Of a DNA stretch of 64,000 nucleotides, positions 2,314 to 53,593 are shown one piece after another; positions within the stretch are counted from its first letter, which is position 1; every line of letters begins with the position of its first letter. The notes under the pieces are model-generated. The model was not told the origin of the DNA, searched no databases, and saw only the letters and a list, made by a program, of their open reading frames with translations. The position numbers and the translations under genes are program-made. This stretch comes from Okamejei kenojei (lineage: Eukaryota): positions 35,464,001 through 35,528,000 of the forward strand of contig CM069133.1 of the NCBI GenBank assembly GCA_035221665.1. Reading direction: 5' to 3'.

Positions 2314-2442
2314 CAGGTGTGACCTGCAGCCGGAGCTCACGCTGGGACAGATGGATAAATGGGCTGTGGGGGGGGGGGGGGGGGGGGTCATTGTGAAGGT
2401 AACGGTACTCATCCGGTTTGTTGATCACCACCGGACGCAGTA
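2314..2442 (-). pseudogene. 3' remnant of a V2-type Ig V-set exon (SIGLEC15-like cluster), truncated 5' near a CR1 insertion
   Basis: VVINKPDEYRYLHNDPPPPPPHSPFIHLSQRELRLQVTP then G|GTAAG donor (GT at 2313-2312). Homologous to the ends of the other V2 exons. Confidence 0.8.
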
Positions 2443-2477
2443 CGGTTGTCAGATGTTGTTGAGGAGTAGGCAGTAGA

Positions 2478-2866
2478 ATGGTACAATACAAAATTCTTAA
2501 GGGGTTGGACAGGCTAGATGCAGGAAGATTGTTCCCGATGTTGTGGAAGTCCTGGACAAGCGGTCACAGTTTAAGGATAAGGGGAAAGTCTTTTAGGACC
2601 GAGATGAGAAAATCGTTTTTCACACAGAGAGTGGTGAATCTGTGGAATTCTCTGCCACAGAAGGTAGTTGAGGCCATTTCGTTGGCCATATTTAAGAGGG
2701 AGTTGGATGTGGCCCTTGTGGCTGAAGGGATCAGGGGGTATGGAGAGAAGGCAGGTACAGGATACTGAATTGGATGATCAGCCATGAACATATTGAATGG
2801 CGGTGCAGGCTCGAAGGGCCGAATGGCCTGCTCCTGCACCTAAATTCTATGTTTCTATGTTTCTAT
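2478..2866 (+). mobile_element. CR1-type LINE 3' end with (TTTCTATG)n tail
   Basis: YKILKGLDRLDAGRLFP...FTQRVVNLWNSLPQ...GYGEKAGTGY*, then the 3' UTR and a short tandem tail. Confidence 0.92.
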
Positions 2867-3056
2867 ATAGATTGAATGATTCAATGGCGGAATAGACTTG
2901 ATGGGCCGAATGGCCTAATTGTACTGCTATTCCTTAAGACCTTATCAGGCGAGTCTGCGTTCGCTATGCCCAGAGAGACAGTGTTTCCGGTTCCTGCTCC
3001 TCTCCCTCCCTCTCCACCCTCGCTGTGCACTGCAGAATGTGCTGATAGTTTCTTAC

Positions 3057-3457
3057 CGGCTGTGACCCGCAGGCGGAATTCACGCTGCGTCAGATGGATA
3101 AACCGCAGGTGTCCTATGGAGCTCTGGGTTGGGGGCCATACAGGGTGGAGGTAATCACGTTTCCTGATATACACCAGACACAAGTAGTCGTGACTGTCCT
3201 CCCCACTCAGCTGCTTTATCCTGGTTGAAGCGTTCCCTCCTCTGGGCCCCCGACCAGCTCGAACCGAGTTGCTGCGTTCTCTGCCGCCCAGGATCCATCA
3301 GCTTGTGGCCTGAACGCGACGATGTGCCCGTAGGGATCCTTCCTCATCCAAGTGACTTTGTGTATGGTGTGGTCGAGTGCAGGCGGTGGGAACACACAGG
3401 GTAACGTGGCCGAAGTCCCCTCAGTCCCAGTCACCACTGAGACATTCACGAGAGCAG
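3057..3457 (-). pseudogene. V2-type Ig V-set exon of SIGLEC15-like gene A, 1-bp frameshift
   Basis: Acceptor ttcactcag| at 3458 and donor G|GTAAGA. NVSVVTGTEGTSATLPCVF...VTWMRKDPY...RFELVG then (shift) NASTRIKQLSGEDSHDYLCLV...FRLRVTA. Length 401 nt is not a multiple of 3. Confidence 0.88.
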
Positions 3458-4559
3458 CTGAGTGAAGGACAAACAGCAGAAAGTAAGTGGGGCCTCGACC
3501 CGAAACGTAACCCATTCCTTCTTTCCAGAGACGCTGTCTGTCCCGCTGAGTTACTCCAGAATTTTGTATCTACCACCAGAATGTACCAGAGTATTGTGAA
3601 TTAATTGTTTTGTACCGACCTCTGCTCGGGGCTTGTAGGTGGCGGCGGCGACCAGTGTGGAGCTGGCAGTGATGATCCCCGGGAAGGTATGGAGTGTGCG
3701 CCGGGAACAGGGCAGATCAAGGATCGCTCCGGCAGCGCGTCACTGGGCTGGATAGAGCGCCTTTGGCAGTGAGGCACTGCATCAGCTCTGCCCTGGGTGT
3801 CAGAGAACGAACAACAGTGAACCCGCGCCTCTCCGGAATCCGCTGCTGTCCTGCACTGGGCTTGTTCAATGTGGTAAGCGGTGACCCGGCACCAGGCCCC
3901 GCCGCCGCCTATAGCACGCGGTACCTCTCTCAGCGAGTGTTGCATACACTCACCCGTTCCCAGTGCAAATGTCTGGCAGCGTGGACTGTTTAAATATACA
4001 GCACTCATATAGATTCATAACGCATCAGTTCTAGTAGTTCATGTTGATTGCCATTTGCCTCCGTTTGTCATATAAGCTTTCTAAGCATTTTCTATCAATG
4101 TACCTCCCCAAACAACATAACGTTTGCAATTACACGGGTCTCAACCAGTTACTCTGGTTGCTCGATCCAAAAAAAGTACCACCCGATGATCTCTAATTCT
4201 TGATTGCCCTAACCGAGGGGAAAAATATCATATGTATTCACGCTGTCTATTCGTTTCGTGATCTTATACGTTCTAACAATATTACCCTGTACTCCCAGTA
4301 CTGAAGGCCTTGAGCTGCCCAACCTCTCCCTCGAGTTCTGGAACATCCTTATCAATGACTGTATTCTTTCCAGCATATTGGCATCTTTCCTGTAGCAGAG
4401 TGATCGAAACTGCGTGGGATACTCCACGTGTGACCTCACCAACATATTATAAAACGGCACATTACAAACCGACGTCTATATTCAATGTTCCATATTATAT
4501 ATTCTAGCTTTACTATGCGCATCTCTTCAATACGTTTTTCTCACACCTTTAGCATTTTG

Positions 4560-4810
4560 GACTCTGGTCTTTGTCCAACCATCTGCCTATCTAATAACCT
4601 GCCTCAACTGTGTCAGCCTATTACGTACCAGGCTTTATCCTGCCCCTCATCTCTTCCAGCATTCTTTCCCCTCCTCCACAATCAGTCTGATGAAGGGTCC
4701 CGATCCTAAACGTCGTGTATCTATGTTATCGTAGGATAGCACATTACCCTTTGAGCTACGGCAGCATTCTGTGTCCTCTTTTGTAAAACAGTATCTGCTG
4801 TTCTATTATC
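4560..4810 (+). mobile_element. Penelope-derived terminal repeat with degenerate hammerhead motif
   Basis: CTGATGAAGGGTCCCGATCCTAAACGTC near 4686-4713. Same family as the repeats at 35742 and 56672. Confidence 0.55.
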
Positions 4811-5074
4811 TGTATTCAATGCCCTGCCTGTTGAATGCCAGTGAGCCAAAACCATTGTTTATCACAGTGTCTACATTTGACGCCACTTTCGGGGAGCTAT
4901 GTATTTGTACTGCAATGTATTTTTTTCTACATCAATCTCCATGCCCTATTCAATGTGGAAACCTCCCAAGCTGAAGAACTCCCATTCTTTAATACAAGCA
5001 GGTTCCAATGGGTTAAACAAAGCCACGCATCTGGATCTTTTCCAAGTGGATGATGCTCCTTCCTCCTTCACACA

Positions 5075-8009: not shown

Positions 8010-8396
8010 CTCTCACAGTCAGACATGTTGCAACCACAGCGTGAAGTGTTCCAATATTGAGTTCCACACGGCATCGATAACTAGAATCATCGCCTTCCCA
8101 GCTCAGTCGCTCCATCATTATCGAGGCATCCCTCTGCCTGAGGTTCCCCACGAATCTCAACCAACCCCTTCCTCTCACCGGCCTCACTTCTTCGCCGCTG
8201 CAGCGGTCAGGACTTAGATATGTGCAGTTAAACACAAGGTGGTCTCCCTCTGATTTCCTCCTGTACCACAACACGGAGCCTGTTAGGATGTGATCAGTGG
8301 GTGGGTGGGTGAATGTACACGGCAACATCGCGGACGTTCCTTCCGCGGCAGACACCTCATCAGCACCGGATATTATCCAACTCTTGTACGAAAAAG
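8010..8396 (-). CDS. V1 exon of gene A: SIGLEC15-like N-terminal V-set domain, open frame, acceptor uncertain
   Basis: WIISGADEVSAAEGTSAMLPCTFTHP...VLWY...VFNC...C...LRFVGNLRQRDASIMMERL..DDSSYRCRVEL parallels human Siglec-15 (AVLPCTFTHP, VFRC...C, RFRLLGN, YFCRVEF). Donor G|GTGAG; 387 nt. The position matching the V1a acceptor reads AA, next to an N gap. Confidence 0.85.
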
Positions 8397-8398
8397 TT

Positions 8399-11425: not shown

Positions 11426-11486
11426 TGAAACCCTGGACTGAGACGGAGAGCAGGACGGTACAGAGACAAACCCAGAGAGAGCACAT
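11426..11486 (-). CDS. Signal-peptide (leader) exon of SIGLEC15-like gene A
   Basis: ATG at 11486 gives MCSLWVCLCTVLLSVSVQGF then A|GTGAGT: 61 nt, phase 1, hydrophobic. Three paralogous copies occur elsewhere in the window. Confidence 0.85.
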
Positions 11487-16030: not shown

Positions 16031-16994
16031 ATAGTACTGACTATTTTGTACTGACTGATTAGTACTGCTGTTCTTATAATGTTGCCAGCGCAACTTTCTG
16101 CACAACGACCTCGTATAATCGGCAACGTGTTGATGTTTGAGAGAAAAAGACCGGTTCGATCATGATTTGTCAAGTGTATCAATAGAATTTCATAGAAACA
16201 TAGAAAATATGTGCAGGAGGAGGCCATTCGGCCCATCGAGCCAGCACCGCCATTCATTGTGATCATGGCTGATGGACCCCAATCAATAACCCGTGCAAGC
16301 CTTCTCCCCATATCCCTTGATTCCACTAGCCCTTAGAGCTCCATATAACTATCTCTTAAATCCATCCAGTTACTTCTAATCCAATGATTTAATGATGCTT
16401 TATTGTCACAAGGACCTAGTTTAGCTACAGTGAAATTCTTTGTTTTTACATACGATACGCAGAGTGCGCAATGGTCGCCACGTATCTGGCGCCGAGAAAG
16501 TTACAAAAGTGCTAATTTCTTTGTTCTCGGCGCCCCCCCCCACCCCCACCCCCACCCCCTTGGCCGAGTCCATCTTTGTTGTTGACGGGGCCTCCCTTCA
16601 GCAATATATATAGGCATGGATCTGACCTTGATCTGCCTGAAATTAATTGCTGCAAGTTAACAAATTCAACAGGTCCTGACATTTTTTCACAACATCGCAA
16701 CAACTCAAGAAAATGGGAACAGAAGACAAGTTACACCGTCCAGCGTGTTATATAAAATTAATATAATAGTAAGATTAAACGAGAACTTACCAGTTCGAAG
16801 TTTGATCGTTATTTTATGAGGAGTTACGATGAGGGATTACGTGAAGAGCCCGCCTGGCGCTGGCAAACGGCATACTTCAAAGCAGCGGCATGAAAAACAC
16901 AGAACACAAAATAGCCGAAGTAACATAGTAAGGCTCATAATAGACTTAGAACTACCAGATGATCATTTATTTTATGAGGGTGGGGAGTGTAGGG

Positions 16995-17106
16995 CACGTA
17001 ATCCCTCATCGTAACTCCTCATAAAATAACGATCAAACTTCGAACTGGTAAGTTCTCGTTTAATCTTACTATTTTACTTCGGAGTCACGTGAGTGACTAC
17101 GTGAAG
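16995..17106. repeat. DIRS-A internal complementary region (ICR)
   Basis: Reverse complement of the left end joined to the reverse complement of the right end (...aatcttac-t-attttacttcggag...). Confidence 0.93.
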
Positions 17107-17340
17107 ATTTTAAAGCTTTCTGTGTTTTTTATGTCGTAGAATTAATCAGTACGACAGTCCGGCTAAGTAAATACATACATGAGAAACCAGACTAATTTTA
17201 GTTCTTTCCATAATTAATTTTTAATGGTTTAAAGAACATCATAATAACCCTCCTTATATCCGAGGGATCATTACAAGTGATAAAAGATATAAGTGACTAC
17301 ATAACTGATTATAGCAATCAATAGTAAACAAAGCAGGTGA

Positions 17341-18222
17341 CTATAGTGATCCCAACACCGCGTGGCCAAAGCTTGTCATAGTGTGAACAGGTTTATTGTA
17401 GAACTTTGAAAAAGTTTCTTCTTTACTCCACCCTGCGATTTTTAAAATATGCTCGAGCAGTACGTCCCGCACCTTCGCCGCGGACGTAGCTGCAGCCCTG
17501 GTGGAGTGAGATTTGAACACATCAGTGTCTACTCCTGCTAACAGTAACACCTGTTTCAACCACTTTGAGATAGTTTGAACTGAAGCTTTAGTGTGTGGTT
17601 TTTTATGCGTAATCATTAACGTTATTTCATTTCCTCGAAGAGTTTTGGTAACTTTTATATATTGGTTCAAATGTCTAACCACACATAAAGTAGGATCAAT
17701 AGGATAAGCTTGAAAGATTACCTTTGCTCCAGTTCTTCCTGGTCTGCTTTGTTTGATCAGATCGTAAACATAGAACACAATGTTATCTGTAGTCACATGC
17801 ATACAGTCTAAACGCAACATTTGTAAAGTTTGCACTCTTTGAGCTGAAACCAATGACATTAACATTATTAATTTGAATGTTAATCTTTCCAATGACAATC
17901 CTTCAATTGGAGTCCACTGTCTCAGTAAGGTAAGTACAATGCTCACATCCCAAATCTCTGTGTATCTAGGTTTGGGTGGATTAATGTTAAAGATTCCTTT
18001 CATGAATCTAGATATTAGTGGATGTGATCCAATTGATTTCTGGTCAGACATAAGTCCTAAATAAGATGATAAGGCACTGCGTGCTGTGTTAATGGCACTG
18101 TAACTTAAATGTTGCTCAAAATGCAATTTAGCAAGGAACTCCAATACATTTGCAATATTCACAGTATCATAAGAAATATTTGACTGTGTGCAAAATTCTT
18201 CCCATTTCTTAATATGTGTCAT
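17341..18222 (-). CDS. DIRS-A tyrosine recombinase (N-terminus frameshifted, extends to about 18310)
   Basis: Catalytic signature SAQR...HSTR...GW...KFY; N-terminal SYSAINTARSALS. Confidence 0.92.
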   Translation of the reverse strand: MTHIKKWEEFCTQSNISYDTVNIANVLEFLAKLHFEQHLSYSAINTARSALSSYLGLMSDQKSIGSHPLISRFMKGIFNINPPKPRYTEIWDVSIVLTLLRQWTPIEGLSLERLTFKLIMLMSLVSAQRVQTLQMLRLDCMHVTTDNIVFYVYDLIKQSRPGRTGAKVIFQAYPIDPTLCVVRHLNQYIKVTKTLRGNEITLMITHKKPHTKASVQTISKWLKQVLLLAGVDTDVFKSHSTRAAATSAAKVRDVLLEHILKIAGWSKEETFSKFYNKPVHTMTSFGHAVLGSL

Positions 18223-18303
18223 ATATTGTTTTTGTGTGTATTCTCGCCATAACTGTAACTTCCATAGTTTTGTCCGACAATCCCAGCTCCTGTAGTGGTC
18301 TGG

Positions 18304-19032
18304 TCAAAACCTGCAGATTAATAAATTCATATATGCATATAATGGATAAATTTCTTTGGTTACTGGATTAATCAAAATATCACTACAGTTAGGAATTGAC
18401 ATATATGGTTCTTTAATCATATTCAGCATTAATGGGAACCAAGATTGTGTTGGCCAATTTGGAACTACCAACAATCCTGTGGCAGAATCTTGTTCTATTT
18501 CCTTCAGACATTGCTGAACCAAAGCAAAAGGTGGAAAAGCATAAAAGAACATATTCCCCCAGTTCAATGAAAAAGCATCTACTGCTACTGCATCTGGATC
18601 GTGTTCCCAAGACACATATTTAGGCAATTGATGATTAAGCCTTGATGCAAACAAATCAATTTCTGGTAAACCAAATTGAGTTACAATATTCTTAAATATT
18701 GCTGGATTAAGCATCCATTCTGTGTTATCTTTAAATATCCTTGATCTTTTATCTGCCACCACATTGTCTTTACCTGGAATGTAGTTTGCTGAAATCCAAA
18801 TTTGGCGATCAATACACCATTGCCATATTTCATTGACCAGACAATCACATGATACTGATCTGACTCCCCCCATGTGATTAATATATGCAACAGCCGTTTT
18901 ATTGTCTAACAGTATTAATACATGTAGACCCTTTTTTGAACAGCAATATGCTTTTAGACCATAGAAAGCACCCAATAACTCTAAATAGTTATACCATAAG
19001 TTTGAAGAAACGTTTCTTCTTGGACTTTCCAT
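18304..19032 (-). pseudogene. DIRS-A RNase H plus adenine-methyltransferase-like domain (frameshifted continuation of RT)
   Basis: NYLELLG, LDNKTAVAYINHMGG, YIPGKDNVVADKRSR (RNase H); IDLFASRLN and YAFPPF (MT-like). Confidence 0.9.
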
Positions 19033-20150
19033 CTACCTCCACAACTGGAGGATGAATCTGTTGCCCCCCATCCGAGAGCACTAGCATCTGTTTGTAAAAC
19101 CATTTCAGGCTGTTTAATCAGAATGTTTTTAGCAGCTTGTGGGACATTGTTAACCCACCATTGTAATTCCAACAAATCTCCTTTTGTTAATTGCATAGGC
19201 CCATCAAAGTGGCCTGCCCTCTCTTTGAAAGCTCTTATTTTGTCCCTTTGAAGATTTTGATAATGTAATGGACCAAATTCTACTGCAGGAAATGCTGCTA
19301 CTAGTTTACCAATAGTTTTCGCTACTTCTCGGATGGAAGGATAAGGTTTGTGAAAGAGATTATTACAAGTCACCAAAATATCATCAACTTTATCTGTTGG
19401 TAAAGTTATTAACATAGTCTCTGAGTTAATTACAAACCCCAAATAGTTAATTGATTGTGCTGGCTGCAGCTGGGATTTAATTGGATGAATCAAGAACCCT
19501 AGCTCTTCAAACAAAGCTTTTGTAACTGAAACTGAATTCTCAGCTGACTCTTGATTATCATTAATGATTTGAATGTCATCGAAATAAGCCATAACGATGT
19601 GTTTTTGTGCTCTTAATTGGGCTAAAACTGGTTTCAACAGTTTCGTAAAGAGCCTGGGAGCTGAACTCAATCCATTTGGCAAAGCTTTAAACTGCCATAA
19701 TTGTCCCAGCCAATTAAATTTTAAGTACCTCCGGAAGAACTGATGTATTGGTACAGAATAATAGGCGTCTTTCAAATCAATCTTAGCCATATAACAACCT
19801 GCTGATATTAAAAATCTTGCAGTATTAAATGTTTTCCATTTTAAAATGTTTGTATTCTACAACTTATTTAGATCTGTAAGGTCCAGAATAATTCTGCAAC
19901 CACCATCTTTTTATGTCTTTTGAAATATATTAGACACAATTGATGCTCGTGTTCATAAGTTTTTTCAATAACCCCTTTTTCAGATAATTTGTCAATTTCC
20001 ACATTAATCTCTGCTTTTCCAATTGTAGTAAACACGAAAGCATAGGCAGGTTTATTCTGTACTGGAGGATTAACCCCTTCTTTAAATGTAATAGTGGCTC
20101 CTGAAACTGTTTGTAAAATAAATCGATCAGAAGTAACGGTAAGCCAGTCT
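18981..20150 (-). pseudogene. DIRS-A reverse transcriptase (frameshifted 5' of 19790)
   Basis: IDLKDAYYSVPI, LPNGLSSAPRLFTK, YFDD, YLGF and LQTDASALGWG. Confidence 0.92.
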
Positions 20151-20199
20151 TTATAAACTTTTGTAATCTCCTTCCACCTGGAGATTTATCCGCAGTTTC

Positions 20200-21405
20200 T
20201 TTAAGGATAGAACAAGTCTTCAATACCTCTCCATATGAGCGTGGTGGTCTCCTTCTCCCCGAGTACGGGTAAGCATTGGACTGTGCAGGACGATAATATT
20301 TCCTTGACATATTTCTGCCTCTATTTCCAAAATCAAATCCCCTTCTTGACGAAAAATACCTTTTTTGTCCAAAGACGAAAGGTTTCATGCAGCTAAAATA
20401 TTTAGCTTCTTCATCCAATTTTTAATTATTTAGGCAGATTTTCTCCAAACAGATAACCAGGAGCTTGAACACCACTTGCTCGGCACAGGCTTGCAAACCT
20501 TGGGTGAAATATGGGCCGAATAGCCATTTTCCTCATACAATTAATTTCACAGAAAGAATTGCACACTAGGCCCAAAATATCTTTTTGAATCTTATCCATC
20601 TCCCCATAAGCCGTAATGGCAGCAGAATTAATTTGAGGATTTTTTTAAAACCTCACTTCTTGAGCTCTCATACTTGGGGTCATGGATGCCCATATCAACG
20701 GATAAACCGTAGGCACTTCCAATGAGGCACAATTCCCTGTGCGTTAATATAATTCTGATGTTTCAATCATCACAGAATCATGAAGTTGGTGAGATACCAT
20801 ATATTAATGTTGGCAGCTAGGTTTTCTTCCATAGCCTCACCACTTCCTTCATATATAGCAAATTATTTTGCTATCCCAGGCACATTTGGCCTTTTCTTTT
20901 ATTTTGTGGTGTGCTTTCAAATGCAAATCACCACCAGCAGGGTCTGCCTTCTGCAGCCCTAAATCAATTGGGATTTCATCCCATGAGACTTCCTCCGGCC
21001 CAAATCCTGGGTCCGGAGTTCCAACTCCCAATCTGGCCCACAGCCTTATTCAGAATAATAAACCCCTCAGGGCTTTTTTGGGACCTTCTGGGTACTGTGA
21101 CCCTAGTCTCATGATTTTTTGGAGAACCTTCTCCATATGCTCCATTTTTAGCCACATAGTTTTATTATCTGGAGGACTTTCAGTATCAGAGTCATCAGAA
21201 CCACGGGCCTCTCAGATTTCTTTTACATTTTTAGGAGCATTTCTCTCCGTGGTTATAACTTCTGGAGAATCTAGAACTCGCTAACGGGTAGATCAGCGGC
21301 CACCGGTATCGGAACCGGATCCGCACTAGCTTTTTGTCCCGTATTTTTATTTTCACCCCGGGAAGATCTTTTTTACCCGCGAATTTTCTTTGCCGATTTC
21401 TCCAT
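20200..21405 (-). pseudogene. DIRS-A gag-like ORF1, heavily disrupted
   Basis: Lies 5' of RT. Short fragments resemble DIRS-B gag. Confidence 0.65.
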
Positions 21406-21939
21406 TTCTTTCATTAATCTGTGCTAAAACAGCACGTTAACGTGACTCTGACTATAATTTTACTTTTACTTTTACTGCTGGACCCACCCAGCGTACGCTA
21501 AAGAACGTCCCGACTTTGCCTCACTTACCTGCGGGTCCGTTCCGACCGCTGCGAGGAGCTGCGCCTTACTGCAGCTCCTCCTTCTGCCGTCAGCGTCGAC
21601 GTAATGCCGTTTGCCAGCGTGAGGCGGGCTCTTCACGTAGTCACTCACGTGACTCCGAAGTAAAATTGTTATTTTATGTGTAGTGCTCCCCACGGGAACA
21701 TTGGTGTAGAAGATTATTCACCACACTTCCTTTTCTCTGTTTCCTGTTATTTAATCACCGGGCCTATTCTGTAGAGGCGTACATGTCCCTTACGACCCTA
21801 TTCTTAGTTATATAGCCACAGACAAAAAGTGCACTTTATTTTAATATTACACGTAAACTTTCCCACAAAATCAACGTTCCCCTTTCTTTTGTGCTTTCCA
21901 GTCGTTCTCCACTGGGTCCGGAAATGTAGTTGAAGCCAG

Positions 21940-22667: not shown

Positions 22668-23053
22668 TTTTTTCGTACAATGGTTGGACAATATCCGATG
22701 CTGATGAGGTGTCTGCCGTGGAAGGGGCCTCCGCTGTGTTGCGTGTACATTCACCCACCCACCCACGGATCACATCCTCACCGGCTCCGTGCTGTGGCAC
22801 AAGATAAATTCCGGGGCTGAGAACGTTGTTTTTAACTGTACACATCCCGGCCCCGCACGCTCCCGGTGCGTTGAGGTGACACAGAAAGCCAGAGGGAGTC
22901 GATTCAGATTCGCAGGGAACCTCACACAGAGGGATGTCTCAATAATGGGAGAGCGACTATGCCGGGAGGACGATGGTGCTAGGTATCGGTGCCAAGTGGA
23001 CCTCAATATTGGACCATTTCACACTGTGGTTCCAACACGCCTGACTGTGAGAT
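22668..23053 (+). pseudogene. V1 exon of gene B (SIGLEC15-like V-set), frameshifted, acceptor AG reads AA
   Basis: WTISDADEVSAVEGASAVL (shift) CTFTHP...VLWHK...VFNCTHPG...RC...RFRFAGNLTQRDVSI...YRCQVDL...RLTVR|GTGAG. 386 nt, preceded by a (CT)n/poly-C tract. Confidence 0.88.
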
Positions 23054-23629: not shown

Positions 23630-24588
23630 ACATAGACAGAAACATAGAAAAATAGGTGCAGGAGTAGGCCACACGGCTCTTCAAGCCAGCACTGCCATTC
23701 AATATGATCATGGCTGATCATCCACAATCAGCACCCCGTTCCTTCTTTTTTCCCCATATCCCTTGATTCCTTTAGCCCTAAGAGCAAAATCTAACTCTCT
23801 CCTAAAAACCTCTAGTGCATTGGCCTCCATTGCCTTCTGTGGCAGAGAATTCAACAGTTTCACAACTCTCGGGGTGAAAAAGGTTTTCCTTATTTCAGTC
23901 CTAAATAGCGTAAGCATTCATCTTAAACTGTGACCCCTTGGTTCTGGCATACCCCAACATCGGTAAAATTTTTCCTGTATCTAGCCTGTTCAATCCCGTA
24001 AGAATGTTTTTAAATGTTTGTATAAGATCCCCTCTCAACTTCTCTTAACTTAATTGCTACGAAATACAAGCCCAATCAACCCATTCTTTTCTCATATGTC
24101 CGTCCCGCCATCCCGGGAATTAACCTGGTGAACCTGCACAGCACTACTTCAATAGCAAGAATGTCCTTCCTCAAATTAGGAGACCAAAACTGCAAAGAAC
24201 ACCCCAGGTGTGGCCTCACCGGGGCCCTGTACAACGGCAGTATGACCTCTTTGCGCCTAAACTCAAATCCTCTCTCAATGAAGGTCAACATGCCATTAGC
24301 TTTCTTCACTCCCTGCTGTACCTGCATGCTTACTTTCAGTGACTGGTGTACAAACACACCCAGGTCTCGTTGCACCTAACCATTTCCTAATCTGACACCA
24401 TTCAGAGAATAATCTGCCTTCCTGTTGTTGCTACCAAAGTGAACAACCTCACATTTGTCCACATTTGGTTGCATCTGCCATCATTTGTCCACTCACCCAT
24501 CATATCCAAGTCTCATAGCATCCTCCCCGTTGCTCACACTGCCACCCAGCTTTGTATCATCCGCAAACTTGGAGACGTTACATATAAT
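23630..24588 (-). mobile_element. CR1-type LINE, 3' part (split by DIRS-B)
   Basis: QRDLGVFVH...KKANGML...PLYRAPVRPHL...RFTRLIPGM, with 3' UTR and tail. Confidence 0.9.
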
Positions 24589-25087
24589 TGTAAGATTAAA
24601 TGAGAACTTACCAGTTCGAAGTTTGATCTGTATTTTATGAGGAGTTACGATGAGGGATTACGTGAAGACCCCGTCCAGCACGCATGCGCGACATTTCTTC
24701 AAAGCAGCGGTGTGGATTCACAGAAAACACAACAATTGAAATAAATATAGTAAAGAAAAAATAAGAACTTAATTACCAGTTGATCTGTATAATAGAGGTT
24801 GGGAGCGGAGGGCACGTAATCCCTCATCGTAACTCCTCATAAAATACAGATCAAACTTCGAACTGGTAGGTTCTCATTTAATCTTACTATTTTACTTTGG
24901 AGTCACGTGAGTGACTACGTGAAGACTTCAAAGCTCTGTGAATCCGAACCGTGTACCAGCTCATGCTTCACTCACTGCCTGAAGACCTTAGAGGGAGGAA
25001 GCATGTTATACAATCAACAATAACCTGTTTGTGAACAATAAAGGTTTATTAATGATAACAAAAAACAGAGAGCTGCCCCGGCTTAAA

Positions 25088-26073
25088 TTAAATATTAGCT
25101 GCAGACTCTAAAATTCTGTCTGCAAATGTAGCAGGTTCCGCCAGCGGCTTATTATAAAACCTTTGGAAAGTTCTTTCCGAGGACCATCCTGCTCTGGCCA
25201 AAAATATGGTCCATAGGCACATCCATTCGCCTAGCCGCCGACGTAGATGCAGCCCTGGTGGAATGAGATTTGTAAACATTAGTATCGACTCCCGCGGACT
25301 TAAGCACCTGCTTGAGCCATCTTGAAATGGTTTGGCTCGTCACCTGACCATGAGGCTTCTTGTGGCTTATCCATAAGGCTTTTTCTCTCCCTCTTAAGTT
25401 ATATGTTGTGTCTATGTAATTGGCGAGATGGGTCTTGGCACACAACCGTGGGTCAGGTGAATATGCCCGGAACTCCATTACTGGAGGCGTGGTACCTGGT
25501 CTAGTTTGTTTGACCAGTCCCTGAATGTGAAATGTGATACAGTCCAATGACTCTGTCATGCTGTCCAGCCTCAGAAGGTGGAGGGACTGTACCCTTTGAG
25601 CTGACACTAGTGCCATGAGCATGACTGATTTCAGTGTAAGTTGTTCCAGCGTGAGTGACCTGGGTGGTGGCCATCTCCTAAGGTACGTCAGTACAATGCT
25701 GACATCCCAGATCTGAGTGTACCTAGGCCTAGGGGAATTGGTGTTAAAAATGCCCCTCATGATTTTGAGCACTAGTGGATGGGACCCCAAAGTCAGTTGT
25801 CCTGCTGCTGGAACCAAATAAGCTGACAACGCACTCCTGGCTGTATTAATGGCTGTAGCTGAGTCGTTCCCGATGTAATCCAACCAGAAACTCCACAACA
25901 CTGGTGGCTGTAGCTGTAGTGTAGGTAGTTCCTGTTTTGGAGCAATACCGTTCCCATTTTCTTATGTTGGTCAGGTATTGTCTCCTGGTGGACTCCCGGT
26001 GGGATGCGGTCATCATGTTGATGGCGTCCTCAGACAGTCCCAGGCCCAGAAGAGGTCTTTTTAGAATATGCAA
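25088..26073 (-). pseudogene. DIRS-B tyrosine recombinase (frameshifted)
   Basis: AINTARSALS, SAQR, HSTR, AGWSSERTFQRFY, spread over three ORF pieces. Confidence 0.92.
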
Positions 26074-27264
26074 GCCAGGAGATTGACTCTGTCATGGCAC
26101 GGGTGACTATTGCCTGACACTGGGTGGATTAATAACTCTCGACTGCTGGGGAATTCCAACGGTGTTTCAAACAGCCATGTCGAAGGCCACTGGGAACCAT
26201 GGCTGTGTAGGCCAGTCCGGTATTATCAAGATTTCTGAAGTGGAATCCAATTGAATCTTGCGTAATACCCGACTGATGAGGCAGAAGGGAGGAAAAGCAT
26301 AAATTTTCCCCCAATGCAGCGAGAATGCATCAACTGCTGCTGCCTCAAGGTCTGGTTCCCAAGCGACATACGTTGGTACCTGGTGATTCAGCCTGGATGC
26401 AAATAGATCGATATCTGGTGTGCCATATTGCTTTGTAATTTCAGCAAATATTTTGGGATTTAACATCCATTCGATATTATCATTGAATCTGCGTGACCTG
26501 GTGTCTGCCACTGTATTTTGCTTACCTGGTAGGTAAGTTGCTGATAACCAAATATGTCTTTCAACACACCATTGCCAGATTAGGTTGGCCAAATTGTCAC
26601 ACGATATCGACTTTACACCACCCATGTGGTTGATATAAGCCACCACCGTGGTATTATCTAATTGCAAACGGACATGTGCATGATGCGTATTAGATGAATA
26701 TGCTTTTAACCCATAAAACGCACCCAACATTTCTAAGTAGTTGATACCCCGTGTCTGTAGGCAAGATGATTCAAATTTAGTCCATCTGCCCCCTGTGCTG
26801 GATTGCATGTTAGTTGCTCCCCAGCCCAAAGCACTGGCATCCGTTTGAATGGTTAATACTGGGTTGGTGATTATTATGGGACTGGAGATGAGCCTTACTT
26901 TCCTTGCCCACCATTGTAACTCTGGAATGGATTCAGCAGTTAAACTCATAGCTCGGTCAAAGTGACCTGAGTTTTGCTTTAGTGCATGCACTTTTGCTCT
27001 TTGCAAATTTTGATAGTGCAAAGGCCCAAATTGTACAGCTGGAAAAGCTGCTACCATTTTGCCAATAACTCTGGCTACCTCCCGTATGGTTGGCTGATGT
27101 TTATTCATGAGTTCGTTGCATGATATTGCCAATTCTGATGCTTTCCCCTTCGGCAGAGTTACAATCATGCGAACAGTATCAATCGTAAATCCAAGATAGT
27201 CCATGGCAGTGGACGGTTGTAAAATTGGATTTATCTGGATGTATGACAAACCCCAAAGTTTCAA
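26060..27264 (-). pseudogene. DIRS-B RT C-terminus, RNase H and MT-like domain
   Basis: QTDASALGWG, NYLEMLG, LDNTTVVAYINHMGG, IDLFASRLN, YAFPPF. Confidence 0.92.
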
Positions 27265-27993
27265 ACAAACGTTTGGTGGCTGCTACTGCCAAAATGGCTG
27301 TCTCCAAGGTTTTCCCTACTATTAAAACGTCGTCTAAATAAGCCATGACTATATGCTTTTGTTCCCTCAATAATGCCAAGGCAGGTTTTAAGATTTTAGT
27401 GAACAGCCTTGGAGCGGAGGTTAGCCCATTTGGTAAGGCTTTAAATTGCCATAGCTGTTTCATCCAGATAAATTGTAAGTATTTACGATGCTCCTTGTGT
27501 ATGGGTACTGAGTAGTAGGCATCTTTTAAATCAATGCTTGCTAGAAAGTACCCTCTAGAAACCAACAGTCTGGCTGTTTCAAAAGTATCCATCTTGAAAT
27601 GTATATACCTGACAGACTTGTTTAAAGTAGTTAAGTCAATGATGATGCGACGTCCACCATCTTTTTTGATTTTAGTGAAAATATTGGACACAAATTCCAA
27701 AGGTTCATGTTTTGTTCTTTCAATGACACCTTTTGCTTGTAACCTCATCAGTTCAGCTTGACTCTCTTGTTTCTCTTTGACTGAGAGGGTGAATACCCTT
27801 TGGGGTATATGCTGAACTGGCGGAATGTTTTCATGAACAAAGTCAATTTTTGTAGCCATGAACGCTGCTGAGTATATACTTGTCTTTAGTGATGGATTCC
27901 CATGCATCCAAAAACAAGTGCAATCTCCACCCTGTTAGTATAGAGCCCCTACTGCACATATGCTGAGAGGGACCAGACCCACCTACCTCCATG
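27179..27993 (-). pseudogene. DIRS-B reverse transcriptase (frameshifted)
   Basis: KKDGGRRIIIDL, IDLKDAYYSVPI, LPNGLTSAPRLFTK, YLDD. Confidence 0.93.
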
Positions 27994-27994
27994 G

Positions 27995-29234
27995 TTATTG
28001 GTGCTTCTTCTGCCTCTTCGCTGGGCGGTGAGGCGTCTGCTGGGCTGTACAGGGTTGATGTTGATGTTGATGTTGTTGGGGGTGGCGCATTTTCCATGGG
28101 GTCCGCTCTGGGCCCTGGCCTAAAAAAGGCTTACGGGGAATGGTTGCGGACCCCGAGCTTTCACCAGTCCCATAGTGTGGTCGACGACTGGTGGACGCCA
28201 TGGGTACTGCCGCCTGGGTTTGTTAGGTCTGCTCGGTCCCAAACCTGCCCTCACGAGACCAAAGGTCTTGGATTCTTCCTCTAGGTCTTTCACCTTTTTT
28301 GGAAGGTGTTTCCCAAAGAGCAGAATAGGAGGTTCTGAACCCGGTGTTTTGCAAAGTCCCGCAAATTTAGGGTTGAGGGCAGGCTTGATGATTTCCTTCC
28401 GTAAATTGTTTATTTCATATTTAGTGGTGCACAGCAGAGCTAATGTGTCTTGCTGATTTGTGGAGATGTCCACACCATCAATGGACCGAGCATATGATGT
28501 TATTCCTGCAGTTAGTAATTTAAGGATTTTGTGGAGCTTCAACTCCAGGTTCCTGATGTTCTGCCCCAAATGTCCCCAAATCTGGCTGTTTACAGCTGGT
28601 ACATTCAATGATGTACAATTTACTGGGGCTGTATATTGTTCAAGAGCCTCATTGACCACCTGTTCTTGTAGGGGTTTTGAGGACAGGTGGTTAATGCTGG
28701 CTGAAAGTTTCCGGCTCTAACGGTCGACCCGCTTGTGGAATGGCCACGTAGCGGTTGACCACACCCAGCAGCTCTTCCTGATCCTGTACACCCTGCGTAC
28801 TCCCGACATATTCAGCCAGTGTCCCTTCTTCTTGACCAGCCCAGACCTGGTCGCCAATGCTGCCTTCAAAAGAAGGTGAAAGCAATGGCCAGTGCCGTAA
28901 AGGGCACTGCGGGAGTGCTTGAGCTCCCTTGGCGAGTCTGCTGCTGCTCTCTCAGCAGGTCTCGCTGGAGCAATTGCTCCATAAGCCGTTCCATGCGGCT
29001 TAGGCGGCTGCCTGTGTCGCTCTTGAACGGTGTGGCATGTTCATCCGAATCGTCGGACACTACCGCCCGGTTCTGGCTGCAGGTACCTCCAGACCGCTGC
29101 TCAGGCAGCACGAGCGGTGCTGGGCTCGGCTTGGTAGTTATACCCGCCGCCTCTTGCCCCCCCTCCAAAGAGCATTCCTCAACGGAGGACGAACGGGGGC
29201 GAGCTGCAGACTTCTTTCCTCTGGTCTTGCTCAT
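27995..29234 (-). pseudogene. DIRS-B gag-like ORF1 (frameshifted)
   Basis: ORF pieces 28866-29234, 28691-28885, 28120-28659 and 27995-28201. Motifs PVNCTSLNVPAVNSQIW, LRKEIIKPAL and LLFG. Confidence 0.8.
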
Positions 29235-29432
29235 TCTTTCTGAAAACAAGCCAACCACAGAGAAAAAGATACACGGCCACGGTAAAACTTACCTGTCGGC
29301 CCGACTTTTCAATGTGTAGCGGGAGCGCCTTGAACTCCCGTTGGTCGCGGGTGCACTGCATGAACGCTAATGTCGCGCATGCGTGCTGGACGGGGTCTTC
29401 ACGTAGTCACTCACGTGACTCCGAAGTAAAAT

Positions 29433-31736: not shown

Positions 31737-32110
31737 CTTCCGGCGGGAATGTCTCAGTGGTGACTGCGACTGAAGGGGTTTCGGCCATATTATCATGTGT
31801 GTTCCCACCGCTTCCGCTCACTCCGTCCCTCTCGCGGTCACATGGACGAGGAAGGATCCCTACCGATACATCGTCACGTTCAGGCCGCAAGCCGATGAAT
31901 CCTGGGCGGCGGAGAACGGAGCAACTCGGTTCGAGCTGATCCGCAACCCAGAGCGGGGAAACGCTTCAACCAGGATAAAGCAGCTAAGTGTGGAGAACAG
32001 TCACGACTACCCGTGTCTGGTGCAGAGCAGGAAACCGCATGCAAAATACCTTTATAATATACCTTTTATTCATCAGTACCAGCGTGAGCTCCTGCTGCGG
32101 GTCACACCCG
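31737..32110 (+). pseudogene. V2 exon of gene B, 1-bp frameshift
   Basis: Acceptor ttccctcag| and donor G|GTAAGA. NVSVVTATEGVSAILSCVF (shift) VTWTRKDPY...RFELI...NASTRIKQL...YPCLV...LLRVTP; 374 nt. Confidence 0.88.
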
Positions 32111-38814: not shown

Positions 38815-39645
38815 GATTTGTTCGGTACGTAGGTATAGATCAATTTCAAATATGGGTTAAATGCACGGGGGGAATGTACAGAGTAAAACGCTGCACTGCT
38901 AAGTACATTGACATGCAGAGATATCTTGTTAAGAAGCAAGTCCCCAGCCCTTTGAAAGCGGCAGGACATGGGCATAGCGTTGAGGAACGATTAAGACGTT
39001 TAGAATGGATGTGGTGGACTTCACGTGGAGACGTAAGAAACGGCAGATGCTGGAATCTGTTTCTCCCACGATCGCACCAGAGATGGAAACGAGACAAAAT
39101 GGTGTCGGCTGAAGAGAGAAAAGGAGTGAAGTGTAATGGATATCGATGGAAAGAGATGGGGCTTGGAAAGGGGAGCGGGATAGTTGAGGAAACAGATTCC
39201 AGCATCTGTCGTTTCTTACGATTCTTGCAATGTCTGCAAGTGAATGAAGTCCAGAACACCCATTCTAAACGTCTCAATCCTCCCTCAAATCTATGCCCAT
39301 GTCATCTGGGGGTGAAAATGTGCCGCCACTTTATGAGAGCTAAGGATTTGCATCCCAAGATCCCTCTGCAATTCAATGTCCTTAAGAGTTCTGCATTTAA
39401 CTATATATTTTCCACCCGTGTATTCAATCCCGTATTTGAAATTGATCTATATCCTGCTATATTCCCGTACAACCTTCCTCCTACCCACAACATTTCCAAT
39501 GTGTGTGTCATCTGCAAACTTATGAATCAGCCCACTGGACATTCAATCCAAACGCCGGGAGAACTGCACGAGTGGGGAAATATCAGGAAAGATAACGAAA
39601 AATCACAACAAAGACGAGGTAATCGTGTCCCCAGAAACCACTTCC

Positions 39646-39704
39646 TGTAACCCCGGACTGAGACAGAGAGCAGGACGGTGGAGCGAAACTCGGAGAGAGC
39701 GCAT
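39646..39704 (-). pseudogene. Orphan leader exon copy D (frameshift, donor lost)
   Basis: ATGCGCTCTCTCCGAGTTTCGCTCCACCGTCCTGCTCTCTGTCTCAGTCCGGGG is homologous to 11426-11486, with a 2-bp deletion. Confidence 0.75.
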
Positions 39705-46722: not shown

Positions 46723-46852
46723 CCAAAGGTCGACAAAATCAGCCAGACCGCAAAAGCAGGTGGGATCGGCGAACTTCATTGAGAGGCAGGTTATATTGCA
46801 GTCGGAAAACTGGTCTGCTCAGCTTCCTCGGGTGGATCAGTCTCCACGCTCG
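46723..46852 (-). pseudogene. Possible degenerate stalk/transmembrane exon of gene C
   Basis: Acceptor tcttgttgtgtccgcag|. Phase-1 read SVETDPPEEAEQTSFPTAI*, then hydrophobic IPPAFAVWLILSTF. In-frame stops present. Confidence 0.3.
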
Positions 46853-47409: not shown

Positions 47410-47635
47410 TACCACCGTTGCGTAGTTGTTGAGATGCTGCTCTGCAGCCCAGAGTCCCTGGTTCGATCCTGATTACGGGTGGTGTCTGTGCGCATTTTCC
47501 ACGTACTCCCCGTGGCCGCATGGTTTTTGTTCCTCCCATATCCCAAAGACGTGCGCGTTTGTAGGATAATTGTCCTCTGCAAACGCCCCTCTAGTGCAGG
47601 ATAGAACTAGTGCATGGATGATCGATGGTTGGCGC
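47410..47635 (+). mobile_element. V-SINE (HE1-like)
   Basis: B-box ggttcgatcct and SINE body. Confidence 0.7.
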
Positions 47636-49141
47636 GGCCTAGAAAGCCTCACATTTTTCTATCACACCCCAAAGGCCATTGCGTTTATATTCCAGGCATA
47701 AAAACGCAATATTACATACCTGAGTTTGTCACGGTAGAAGATAACACACATCACTGAAAGGAAAAGGGTTTTCAATCCTAGAGGGATCTACAGGATCAGA
47801 ACCATGTAACTGTGTGATTGAGGAGAGAGTGAGAGAGGTCAGAGTGGTCACTGGGAAAGGGGAGCGATCGACAATGTACAAATGGTGTTTGCTTATCTAA
47901 GATCACCTCTCATTCTCCACACTCTGGAGAATATAGGTCTAATCTGCTCGAGGAAATAACAGACTGCTGACAGCGCTCAGGAAGTCAGGCAACTCTAGAA
48001 GGAAATCCAAATATGCCGTTTTGTCCAGTTTTGAGGCAAGGTCTCGATATGAATTGTCATTCGCCAATTTCCTTCCAGACATGCTACCTGGCCTATCGAG
48101 TTCCTCCAGTAGCTTTTTTCCTGCTCAATGTCCCTGTCTCCGGTCCACTCAATGTCCCCTCAATGATCTACTCAATGATCTTCAATCAACCTGCCCTTCC
48201 GGGAAACAGTGACGGAAACTTTACCGTACTCGCTCCCCACTAATCGTGGCTTTATTGTAGTTAAGAAGAGCAAAGTCCGACCAAGTACTGCTGGCGAGGT
48301 CTCACTAGATCCTTACATAACTGCGGTGAAATATCTCAAGCCTTGAATATAAATCCTCTCTGGATAAAACCTGAACAACTATTGCCTTTCTCGACCCTTC
48401 CACACCAGAACCACCCTTGATTGTCATGAGAACAAGCACACTCGGGTCCTTTTGAACATCCACAGCACCCAATCTCTCACAATTTAATAAACACTGTTTT
48501 TTATGTTCATTCAACCGTGTGGATAATTTGCCACATTTTATTCCACATTATGCTCCCACCCGCTTAATCAGCTTGTCCACCTTCCCCGAATCTCCGCGTC
48601 CTCCTGCCCTCTCACAGTCCCGCGGCATCACCATCATCGTCAGACCTGACAATTCCCCCCCCCCCCCCCCCCCCCTCCCCACCTTCAATCAACTCACTGA
48701 TGCAGATTATGAATAGCTGAGACCAAGAACCAATCTCTGAAGTACCTCGCCAGCCGCATACTCTCAACATGACAGAGATCCAGATATTTCATTATACATT
48801 CTGCTCGACAACTGCTTCACGATCCCCGGCAGTGCGTTGACTTAATGCCGCCTTTTCGCATCTGGTTCCCCAAACTCCTGGCTGGGACCCAACCTAGATC
48901 CTTCTGAGAATCCATACGTATCACAGCACCCTGTTTCCTCTTAGGCATTCAACTCCTCACCTCGCCAAAGGACTCCAATAGATTGATCAGCTATGGTTGA
49001 CTTTTCTCTGGAGTTGTATCTGACCCTCCTGATGCGAGGCTGCGCCCACTGAGTCCTGAGAGACAGGGTTTCCTGTGCCTGCTCTCCTCCCTCCCTCTGC
49101 ACCTCCGTTTTACACGGCAGAATGTGGCGATGGTTTCTTAC

Positions 49142-49573
49142 CTGGTGTGACCCGCAGCGGGTACTCACACTGGTACTGATGGGTGTACGGGGGGGGGGGG
49201 GGGGGGGGGGGGGGGGGTGTACGCTGTTCCTCAACTTTTCGTGGATGTACTTTCTCGGATCGTAGTTTTCCCGGTTTGCTGATCTCCACCAGACACAGGT
49301 AGCCGTGACTGTCCTCCACACTCAGCTGCCTTATCCTGGTTGAGGCGTTTCCAAGCTTTGGGTCCCCGACCAGCTCGAACCGAGTTGTTCCGTTCACCGC
49401 CGCCCAGGATCCATCAGCTTGGGGTCTGAACGTGACGATGTGTCGGTAGGGATCCTTCCTCATCCATGTGACCGTGAGGACGCTGCGGTGATACTGTGAT
49501 TGCCGATACACACATGGTAACGTGGCCGAAGCCCACTCAGTCCCAGTCACCACTGAGACATTCCAGTCGGGAT
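49142..49573 (-). CDS. V2 exon of gene C: Ig V-set domain, open frame with poly-Pro in the FG loop
   Basis: Acceptor tttcctcag| and donor G|GTAAGA; 432 nt, phase 1-1. SATLPCVY...VTWMRKDPY...RFELVGDPKLGNASTRIRQLSVEDSHGYLCLVE...PLRVTP. Confidence 0.85.
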
Positions 49574-50480: not shown

Positions 50481-50735
50481 AGTCTCCCAGGCAGTAGAGA
50501 GAACTGCGCTGAATCTTTGCAACTCTCTGCGCCAAAACGTGTACTGCCAAGATGACGTCTGCTACATGATTTTTCAGGGTTGTCTGCAAAACAAAGTATT
50601 TCACTGTACCTAGGTACGTGTGAGAATTCAGTATTATTGAATTGAACCATCAACATATATTGATCAGTATTGTACCGGGGGAACCCGCGGTCCGTGAGCT
50701 CTGGGGCAGCGACAGTCTCTGAACATTGTTCTCAC

Positions 50736-51106
50736 CTTCCACAGTCAGCCGCGTTGGAATCACAAATTGAAAATACCCAACACTGAGTTCCAGGAAGCAC
50801 CGGTACTTATCACTGTCCTCCCGTCTCAGTGGCTCCACCATTATCGAGGCATCTCTCTCTCTGAGGTTCCCCACGAATTTGAACCGACCTCCTCCGGCCT
50901 TCTGTCACTTCATCGCATCGGGGGCGGCCGGGACCCGTATATGTGCACTTAAACACAAGGCTATGAGGCCTTGATGACACCTTGTGCCACAGCACGGAGC
51001 CGGTGAGGTTGTGATCAATGCCTGGGTGGGTGAATGTACACGGCAACACAGCGGAGGCCCCTTCCACGGCAGAACCTCATCAGCACTGGATATTGTCCAA
51101 TCATTG
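50736..51106 (-). pseudogene. V1b exon of gene C (SIGLEC15-like V-set), two frameshifts; 5' end in gap
   Basis: WTISSADEV (shift) EGASAVLPCTFTHP...VFKCTY...RCDEVT (shift) VGNLRERDASIMVE...YRCFLEL...RLTVE then G|GTGAG. Confidence 0.88.
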
Positions 51107-51289
51107 NNNNNNNNNNNNNNNNNNNNNNNNNNNNNNNNNNNNNNNNNNNNNNNNNNNNNNNNNNNNNNNNNNNNNNNNNNNNNNNNNNNNNNNNNNNNNN
51201 NNNNNNNNNNNNNNNNNNNNNNNNNNNNNNNNNNNNNNNNNNNNNNNNNNNNNNNNNNNNNNNNNNNNNNNNNNNNNNNNNNNNNNNNN
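51107..51289. other. Assembly gap
   Basis: N run. Confidence 0.99.
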
Positions 51290-51698
51290 ATTGGAACGAG
51301 TACAGGTGTGAGGTTCCAAATCCACACTGTCCCTGGGTGGTTGTCACAACCGATGTTTTCAGAATCACCAACACGGGGACTGGGATATAATCAACTGTTC
51401 GTGGATGTGTAATCACGCCTTTTCGGCGGGTCAGTTAGTTTTTATAATGTTGCTGATTTATTTACATTCCGGGGAGGAGAAATGTTTGGACATTTTGCAG
51501 GACCGAGGACGGAGATGGATTCTGGGGATTCTCTCACTGTCACATAATGGATTCACAGTGGCGACGGCCATTCGTTCCATCGGTTCTATGCTAACTCCAT
51601 GTTACATCAATCCAGCCAGTCGGACTTGTTCTCCATATTCTCAACAGACAGCCCTGCAACTTACTTTCACATACCGTCGGTTAAATTTGCCGGTCTCC

Positions 51699-51731
<33 letters not shown>

Positions 51732-51937
51732 ACCCCCCCCCCCCCCCCCCTCTCCCGCCGCCGGCACCGCGTCCCATTGGAACCGCTCCCTGTGAGGACT
51801 CACGTCCCCCAGCAACACACTGATTCCTTGGCCAATCACCTCGATGCTGTATCGTCATATCTTCTCTGTCCACCAATGGGAACAACCTCCCTGTACGCAA
51901 TGTTAAATCCCTCCATTAGATCTCCTCCCGACCTCAC

Positions 51938-52300
51938 CCACAGATTCAAATTTCCCAACACTGAACTCCAAGCGGCACCTACAGCTATCACTGTCCTCCC
52001 TTCTCAGTGGCTCCACCATTATCGAGGCAGCTCCTTCTCTGAGGTTCCCAACGAATTTGAACCGACCTCCTCCGGCCTTCTGTGTCACTTCATCGCATCG
52101 GGGGCGGCCGGGACCGGCATATGTGCAGTTAAACACAAGGCTGTGAGGCCTTGATGGCAACTTGTTGTACCGCAGCACGGAGCCGGTGAGGATGCGATCA
52201 GTGGGCAGGTGGGTGAATGTACACGGCAACACAGCGGGGGCTCCTTTCATGGCAGACTCCGCATCCGCACCGGATATTGTCCAACCATGGTACGCAACGT
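51938..52300 (-). pseudogene. V1a exon of gene C (SIGLEC15-like V-set): open frame, G-strand truncated, core W>R and Y>C
   Basis: Acceptor ctctttccag|. DVAYHGWTISGADAES...AVLPCTFTH...VLRYN...VFNCTY...RFKFVGNL...SCRCRLEFSVGKFESV then G|GTGAGG; 363 nt. Confidence 0.85.
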
Positions 52301-52356
52301 CTGGAAAGAGAGAGAAAGAGAGAGGGTGAGAGAGAGAGTTGAGAGAGAGAGAGAGT

Positions 52357-52402
<46 letters not shown>

Positions 52403-52417
52403 AGGGGGTAGGGGGTA

Positions 52418-52563
52418 NNNNNNNNNNNNNNNNNNNNNNNNNNNNNNNNNNNNNNNNNNNNNNNNNNNNNNNNNNNNNNNNNNNNNNNNNNNNNNNNNNN
52501 NNNNNNNNNNNNNNNNNNNNNNNNNNNNNNNNNNNNNNNNNNNNNNNNNNNNNNNNNNNNNNN
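52418..52563. other. Assembly gap within a GA/poly-G tract
   Basis: N run flanked by poly-G and (GA)n. Confidence 0.99.
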
Positions 52564-52571
52564 NGGGGTGT

Positions 52572-52627
<56 letters not shown>

Positions 52628-53532
52628 GGGAGAGGTAAATATTGGAACAAGTATAGGTGTGGATTTCCAAATCCACACTGTCCCCGGGGTGTTGTCACAA
52701 GCGATGCCCTCAGATGTCTGTGGGATAGACACATCAACAGGGGAACTGGGTTACAGGCTGGGATATAATCAACTGTTCATGGGTGTGTGATTCTCGTCTG
52801 TTCCCCGGGTCAGTTGGTTTTTATAATGTTGCTGATTTACTTTCTGGGGAGGGGAAATGTTTGGACATTTTGCAGGACAGGAGACGGAGATGGATTATTG
52901 GGATTCCCTCACTGTCACATAATAGATGCACAGTGGAGACGGCCGTTCAGCCCATCGGTTCGATTATGGCTCCCTGCGATGACTCGTGTCTCCCAGAAAC
53001 AAACGTGTTTCTTTGGCCAATCACCCCCATTCTCTATCGTCATCTCTTTTCTGTCCACCAACGAGAACAACCTCCCTGTAAACAATGTTAAATCCCTCCA
53101 TTAGATCTTCTCCCAACAGTGTTACGAGCTGGAAACCAGTCGGTCCTTCCAGCTCGCACCACCGACGATAACATCGCGGCTGCTCTGCTGTTAATTCTCT
53201 CTCCATATCCCCGCCTGCTTTCTGTCACCTTGCCCCCTCTTGCTTATCGAGAGTCTCACTGTTTTATGAATGGTGGTCTCCATATGCATATTCTTCCATC
53301 TCAGCCGTCCCCAGATAACCTTCACCAAGGGCTCGCTTGGTCAAGAGGGCGCCTCGCCACCAACTTCTGAAGGACACAGATATGGACAATATCGCCACAT
53401 TCTCCACACGTCCCACCCCTTTGAGCCAAAGTACGAACAGCTGGAGTGCGGAGAGAATGGGAAACGGAACATTGGTTGAGATGACGAGACCAAGGGGAGA
53501 TAACAAAGAGGGTCAACAAAAAAAACTCCTAC

Positions 53533-53593
53533 TGTGACCGTGGACGGAGACGGAGAGCAGGATGGTGCAGAGACAAACCCAGAGAGATCACAT
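53533..53593 (-). pseudogene. Leader exon of gene C with a nonsense second codon
   Basis: ATG TGA TCT CTC TGG GTT TGT CTC...CAC A|GTAGG; 61 nt, matching the gene A leader. Confidence 0.85.

Follow-up and report, generated by a model that had tools for sequence, protein, structure and literature searches.

Broken duplicates of Siglec-15-related tandem-V genes in a skate and the likely paired receptor family to which they belong

A stretch of 64,000 nucleotides from the skate Okamejei kenojei (contig C3, positions 35,464,001–35,528,000; hereafter the window) carries exons for immunoglobulin V-set domains that resemble the V domain of Siglec-15, arranged in three units, A, B, and C. Are these units working receptor genes, and to which known receptors are they related? 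All three are broken duplicates, and none is an intact membrane receptor. They probably belong to a cluster of Siglec-15-related genes of the form leader–V1–V2–transmembrane (TM), likely paired immune receptors, in which V1 is a predicted sialoglycan binder and the sign of the signal would be set by the TM exon and the tail. An initial annotation of the window had described a receptor cluster under birth-and-death evolution. That description stands, except that it missed the broken state of the units, all of which carry stops, lost splice sites, missing exons, or frameshifts, and the presence of both activating-type and inhibitory-type members.

Siglec-15 kinship of V1 and the V1–V2 layout

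V1 of unit A and V2 of unit C both pass the Pfam V-set cut-off, and the best PDB match of each is human Siglec-15 (E 1.8e-11 and 1.5e-7, respectively). Compared with the PDB, a profile of the family scores 82 bits against Siglec-15, at most 36 against the next single V domains, 33 against CD33, and 29 against NKp30. The predicted fold of the closest Amblyraja relative (predicted local distance difference test score, pLDDT, 83.7), compared over V1, ranks human Siglec-15 (PDB 7zoz) first of 48,161 chains, with Z 17.6, a root-mean-square deviation of 2.1, and 119 aligned positions; the next chain reaches 15.5. Comparison with the ESM Atlas returned generic V-set clusters.

The residues of V1 were scored against Siglec-15 V-domain features drawn from passages of PMC10264397. 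The cysteines of the B–F disulfide (C64–C142 of Siglec-15) are present in 83 and 88 of 90 V1 domains, and those of the extra pair (C95–C104) in 89 and 87. The F-strand arginine (R143) is found in 68 of the 90, the A-strand tryptophan (W44) in 79, and a phenylalanine in the column of Y154 in 66. Within the window the extra VFxC…C pair is kept in all four V1 exons, as had been noted, with the pair of unit A displaced by a few residues; the arginine is kept in two of the four. By profile, fold, and residues (extra cysteines and arginine), V1 is Siglec-15-like, in agreement with the initial annotation, and tree support for this assignment is weaker.

V1 and V2 each form firm clades (support 99–100). 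V2 is a different V domain: it groups with the V2′ domains described below, lacks the arginine in all 109 cases, and has a very variable F–G loop. The ratio of nonsynonymous to synonymous substitution rates (dN/dS) is at least 1 in 10 of 15 V2 paralog pairs and in none of 10 V1 pairs, broken copies being included in the set; the best V2 pair gives a Fisher p of 0.07, which is not significant, and positive selection is not claimed.

The order of the two domains is far from a chance arrangement, given that the Pfam cut-off is passed and that V1 followed by V2, on one strand and within 11 kb, recurs in ten units on the contig. Among 105 records, isoforms included, every one that has both domains shows V1 directly adjoining V2. 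No C2 match was found in these 105 relatives, nor at the loci of subfamily I within 661 kb, so that the proposed leader–V–V layout, with V2 directly after V1 and no C2 exon between them, holds. The donors are phase 1, in line with the claim of phase 1–1 exons, and all three V2 exons of the window have AG acceptors. That V1 and V2 share a transcript is suggested by one public contig of 171 nucleotides (run X3, presumed to be RNA, depth 2.7). It covers window positions 3355–3459 and runs on into 63 loose letters. The 30 of these that are shown are identical to window positions 8012–8041, the end of V1; V1 is thereby joined exactly to V2 in phase 1 at GT/AG sites.

Two protein searches, the second with a single protein, returned 45 and 90 relatives, all from skates, rays, and sharks. 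Amblyraja radiata proteins are nearest, with identities from 80% (V1) to 97% (a neighbouring gene), which accords with the cartilaginous-fish host that had been deduced. Relatives in many rays and sharks have the form leader–V1–V2–TM; (V1–V2)2, V1–V2–V2–V2, and single-V forms also occur. Public gene models of the family bear scattered and misleading names (pIgR-like, JAM-like, Siglec-10/12, A33-like). The same layout is thus spread across skates, rays, and sharks, and a V–V–C2 sister group occurs in the chimaera Callorhinchus, so that the family is not lineage-specific as first supposed.

The sister subfamily has the form V1′–V2′(1–3)–C2–TM and lies at 35.82 Mb and 44.69–44.87 Mb of C3. It keeps a C2 domain of Siglec-15 type, and its V1′ domains mostly lack the extra cysteine pair. 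A profile search covered 1.84 billion representatives, of which the best 150 were viewed and 20 named; among these 20 the V–V–C2 subfamily occurs in Callorhinchus, Heptranchias, Mobula, and Narcine. Tandem Siglec-15-like V domains also appear in records from lungfish (up to seven V domains), gar, characins, and salamanders (P0050, P0077, P0080, P0081, P0100, P0104), and the salamander V–V records carry tails with putative immunoreceptor tyrosine-based inhibitory motifs (ITIM-like tails). These records resemble the skate and shark family in having tandem V domains of Siglec-15 type; unlike that family, none has a domain of V2 type. On the tree, the V domains of any one lineage pair with each other, so these records look like separate duplications. 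To regard tandem V domains as foreign to Siglecs was therefore too strong a premise. Human Siglec-12, too, has two V domains.

Damage to units A, B, and C

The exons called from six-frame translation and self-comparison are listed in the table. Four leader-like, four V1, and three V2 exons lie where they had been placed, and the outlines of the units need revision. Position 2314, at which unit A had been drawn to end, closes a partial repeat of the 3′ end of V2 and not the V2 exon of unit A itself. For unit B, no leader lies within 11 kb upstream, and no match to a TM exon was found. Unit C has two V1 exons, and its TM and tail exons lie beyond the coordinates first given.

Table. Exons and exon remnants of the Siglec-15-like family in the window (window coordinates)
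Feature	Position	Strand	State
Unit A, leader exon	11426–11486	−	intact, phase 1 donor
Unit A, V1 exon	8010–8397	−	Siglec-15-like, Arg kept; homologous acceptor without AG, beside masked N
Unit A, V2 exon	3057–3457	−	1-nucleotide deletion near 3236
Unit A, partial second copy of V2 3′ end	2314–2400	−	also present in paralog E
Unit B, V1 exon	22668–23053	+	acceptor AA; 1-nucleotide deletion near 22741; Arg to Gln
Unit B, V2 exon	31737–32110	+	1-nucleotide deletion near 31823
Unit C, leader exon	53533–53593	−	codon 2 is a stop
Unit C, first V1 exon	51938–52300	−	frame open; core Trp to Arg, G strand deleted
Unit C, second V1 exon	50736–51106	−	two frameshifts, masked 5′ end
Unit C, V2 exon	49142–49573	−	+1 base near 49271, offset by poly-C run (30 nucleotides)
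Unit C, TM exon, lysine (activating) type	47720–47817	−	acceptor lost, stop at 47790
Unit C, short cytoplasmic (tail) exon	46791–46852	−	
Orphan leader	39645–39704	−	frameshifted
Orphan leader	63650–63709	−	frameshifted

Unit A duplicates, in inverted orientation, the intact, arginine-bearing paralog E of lysine type (C3:35.577–35.588 Mb), with blocks at 86–93% identity. The TM exon of unit A is gone: where paralog E has 6 kb that include this exon, A has 2 kb of repeats. The V1 acceptor is damaged at the homologous site; since masked bases adjoin it, another acceptor is possible. The frameshift in V2 is a slip of one nucleotide within an A run. No matching RNA run was listed for V1 of this unit, and three runs with the same label mapped on unit A mainly at repeats. 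Unit B is a copy of paralog D, which is broken as well. In unit C the V2 frame is open only through the extra base and the C run that compensates for it, and its survival is due to chance.

Some of the frameshifts may be assembly errors, because a conserved neighbouring gene that is intact in Amblyraja shows a similar slip. Stops, acceptor changes, and missing exons are independent of this caveat.

Transmembrane types and comparison with known receptors

The relatives fall into two types, one with a lysine in the TM helix, the other with a neutral helix followed by an ITIM-like tail. In a tree built from the ectodomains of 52 TM-bearing records chosen by hand (30 of lysine and 22 of neutral type), the two interleave by lineage with 10 changes, while each TM/tail type stays alike across sharks and rays; this combination would fit repeated duplication or gene conversion. 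The lysine helix matches the setting of the Siglec-15 helix (PLGxK in gull). The role of the lysine in Siglec-15 is taken from a part of PMC7226832, and this residue, the Siglec-15 criterion for DAP12 or DAP10, is present in the 30 records and in the broken TM exon of unit C; adaptor pairing is a prediction. A family search for DAP10 gave no match, in a setting where tiny exons could hide DAP10 and DAP12 was not searched for. Because the relatives show either the lysine or a neutral helix with an ITIM-like tail, the family is, as judged from its sequences, one of paired receptors: like ectodomains, a charged TM helix or a tail with tyrosine motifs, and one cluster.

Between 30.9 and 35.6 Mb of C3, own-genome searches found at least 12 V1 and at least 11 V2 places, and the contig holds intact genes of both types. 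Two nearby lysine-type genes have open spliced frames and AG/GT sites. One ITIM-type gene, which lies at C3:34.21–34.25 Mb and bears the arginine, has an open spliced frame with AG/GT sites in which the helix is neutral, TYASI occurs in two exons, and the last exon carries VIYAAV (the tail was checked by eye). A fourth gene is open up to its TM exon, with its tail cut. Of the 366 candidate frames that flank the C3 clusters, 148 were checked and gave mobile-element domains and one weak stray match only.

In an inhibitory-type paralog at C3:34646373–34646456, the helix contains an arginine and the tail is cut off ahead of the tyrosine motifs; a sign switch or decay is possible.

With Siglec-15 (PDB 7zoz; bird, frog, and fish records P0161, P0169, and P0186) the family shares the B–F and C′–C″ cysteine pairs, the F-strand arginine, the A-strand tryptophan, and the setting of the TM lysine. 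It differs in having a second V domain in place of C2, many copies, a neutral helix in about two fifths of TM-bearing records, many of them with ITIM-like tails, and a G–G′ loop three residues shorter with no equivalent of Y87. In tetrapods SIGLEC15 is a single gene beside SLC14A and EPG5. In the skate SLC14A lies on contig C1, with no V match within 200 kb on the one side covered, and EPG5 was not located; ATP synthase alpha was placed at C1:169.9 Mb, with NELFA-type genes around it. The five best matches of a gull Siglec-15 query are C3 exons, and no clearly canonical gene appears among the 100 candidates scored. A V + C2 gene at C3:44629000–44633900, the neighbour mentioned above, is Siglec-15-like and has the arginine and a neutral helix; it lacks the extra cysteine pair, and its frame is interrupted by the slip of one nucleotide. 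The multicopy family does not fit the definition of SIGLEC15 as a single gene with V and C2 domains and should not be filed under that name.

Other receptor systems resemble the family in part. Among CD33-related Siglecs, Siglec-5 and -14 and Siglec-11 and -16 are paired inhibitory and activating members with like ectodomains. These pairs and the two-V Siglec-12 recall the family in their paired signs and tandem V domains, whereas the family is built on the Siglec-15 type of V domain (F-strand Cys-Arg), and the CD33/CD22-like V exons of this genome lie on other contigs. A CD33-type V1 was rejected on the profile scores given above and because CD33-like rows stand apart on the trees. NKp30 (NCR3) as closest relative was rejected on its score and because the family has two V domains; the trees did not include shark NKp30.

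MDIRs (modular domain immune-type receptors), to which the initial annotation had tentatively linked the family, are multigene activating and inhibitory immunoglobulin receptors of the skate that resemble CD300, TREM, and pIgR, according to passages of PMC3031540; section 5 of that paper describes the second disulfide of CD300-type domains as a WC…C motif from strand C. This motif is absent from all 105 proteins, and no match among the 45 and 90 is named MDIR. The link is thus not upheld in a comparison by motif, names, and description.

Proposed function, rival explanations, and significance

Descent from the Siglec-15 lineage is most likely, and the family may have arisen from the V–V–C2 form by loss of C2. 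V1 is predicted to bind sialylated glycans through the F-strand arginine, as Siglec-15 does through R143, and V2 may be a spacer that extends the receptor or a second, faster-changing binding surface. Lysine-helix members would recruit an adaptor of DAP12/DAP10 type and activate; in neutral-helix members the TYASI and VxYAAV tyrosine motifs would inhibit by attracting phosphatases of SHP type. The ectodomains of the two types may stay alike through gene conversion or repeated duplication. Expression of the intact genes would be most likely in leukocytes.

Several observations weigh against this proposal. V1 and the bony-vertebrate Siglec-15-like domains group weakly (support 81, then 72 with 32 of 89 rows dropped), the careful tree placed a long outgroup inside V1, and Siglec-15 profile scores overlap (44–98 bits for V1, 24–63 for outgroups). 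The Y87 column is not conserved among the 90 V1 domains, the arginine is absent from 22 of them, and zebrafish Siglec-15 is, in a passage of PMC7226832, a poor binder of the glycans tested. Most of the relatives are automatically predicted gene models, and each isoform was counted on its own; the 10-change tree count has no shuffled control, and the V1–V2 junction is a single contig of low depth from a run whose RNA nature is a guess. Slips of one or two nucleotides in runs, like that of the V + C2 neighbour, account for several frameshifts in the window. Sialic-acid binding, signalling, adaptor use, and cell type are all predictions from sequence.

Ancestry and paired signalling could be as proposed while the family has abandoned sialic acid, with proteins or other molecules as the ligands of V1 and V2 and the arginine as a structural leftover. 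The V1 domains without arginine and the unconserved Y87 column would agree with this, as would V2, with its missing arginine, variable F–G loop, and high dN/dS values. Yet the arginine, the tryptophan, and a G-strand aromatic residue are each kept, across sharks and rays, by at least about three quarters of the V1 domains, and the dN/dS set takes in broken copies and falls short of significance in its best pair; we regard this alternative as unlikely. Another would be for the Siglec-15 likeness to be convergence among V domains, the genes encoding receptors like MDIRs, CD300, and pIgR or like NKp30. Some database names do read “polymeric immunoglobulin receptor-like,” NKp30 is the second PDB match of V1, some shark V1 domains end in a J-like FGxG, and deep tree support is weak. 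Against convergence stand the missing WC…C motif and MDIR names, the first rank of Siglec-15 by both sequence and fold, and the Siglec-15-type C2 retained by the sister subfamily, which together make it very improbable.

The remaining alternative concerns unit A, which might be a live gene for a membrane-bound or secreted V1–V2 protein, its lesions being assembly errors. The frameshift in its V2 falls in an A run and is a slip of the sort seen in the conserved neighbour, the nearest Amblyraja record likewise ends without a TM helix, and the 30 V1 letters shown for the X3 contig match A at all 30 positions and E at 29. The V2 part of the same contig, however, carries the letters of paralog E at all three listed sites, and its five differences equal the A–E count. 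The TM exon was lost through a structural difference of several kilobases, and the V1 acceptor is damaged too, so that a live unit A seems quite improbable.

Siglec-15 is usually treated as a conserved, activating Siglec with V and C2 domains. If the proposal of a paired receptor family is right, an elasmobranch-wide family with inhibitory members and without C2 changes the view of sialic-acid sensing in early jawed vertebrates, and it offers specific shark and ray genes with which the recognition of self and non-self glycans could be tested. A bolder reading, which we hold to be doubtful, is that cartilaginous fishes have no canonical single V–C2–lysine SIGLEC15 and that Siglec-15 is there a large, roughly 420-million-year-old family of paired sialic-acid receptors with ITIM members. 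On this view the single activating SIGLEC15 found in tetrapods would be what is left of an ancestral paired system that ran in parallel with the CD33-related Siglecs and independently of them. No account of the family turned up in a literature search; subscription journals and supplements on bioRxiv were outside its coverage, so an earlier description is possible. A single-cell paper on the bamboo shark with its four supplements does not mention the family, nor does a review of fish immunity, and the portion of PMC8455134 covered holds one generic passage.

Some minor features of the window and the genome deserve record. Two DIRS-like retrotransposons on the minus strand (16761–21700 and 24582–29400), which have terminal inverted repeats and frames for reverse transcriptase and for a tyrosine-recombinase-like protein, lie around and inside unit B, and a Tc1-type fragment occupies positions 1–560. 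Six runs of at least 20 C or G occur in the window, two of them at a shared position in the 3′ end of V2, by slippage or as an assembly artefact. Elsewhere, further V exons match Siglec-15 at about 30% identity on contigs C42, C206, C229, C34, C384, and others; the one that was read looks CD33/CD22-like, which suggests a possible second large Siglec cluster. Two near-identical TIM-like V exons lie at C11:41976418 and 42031282.

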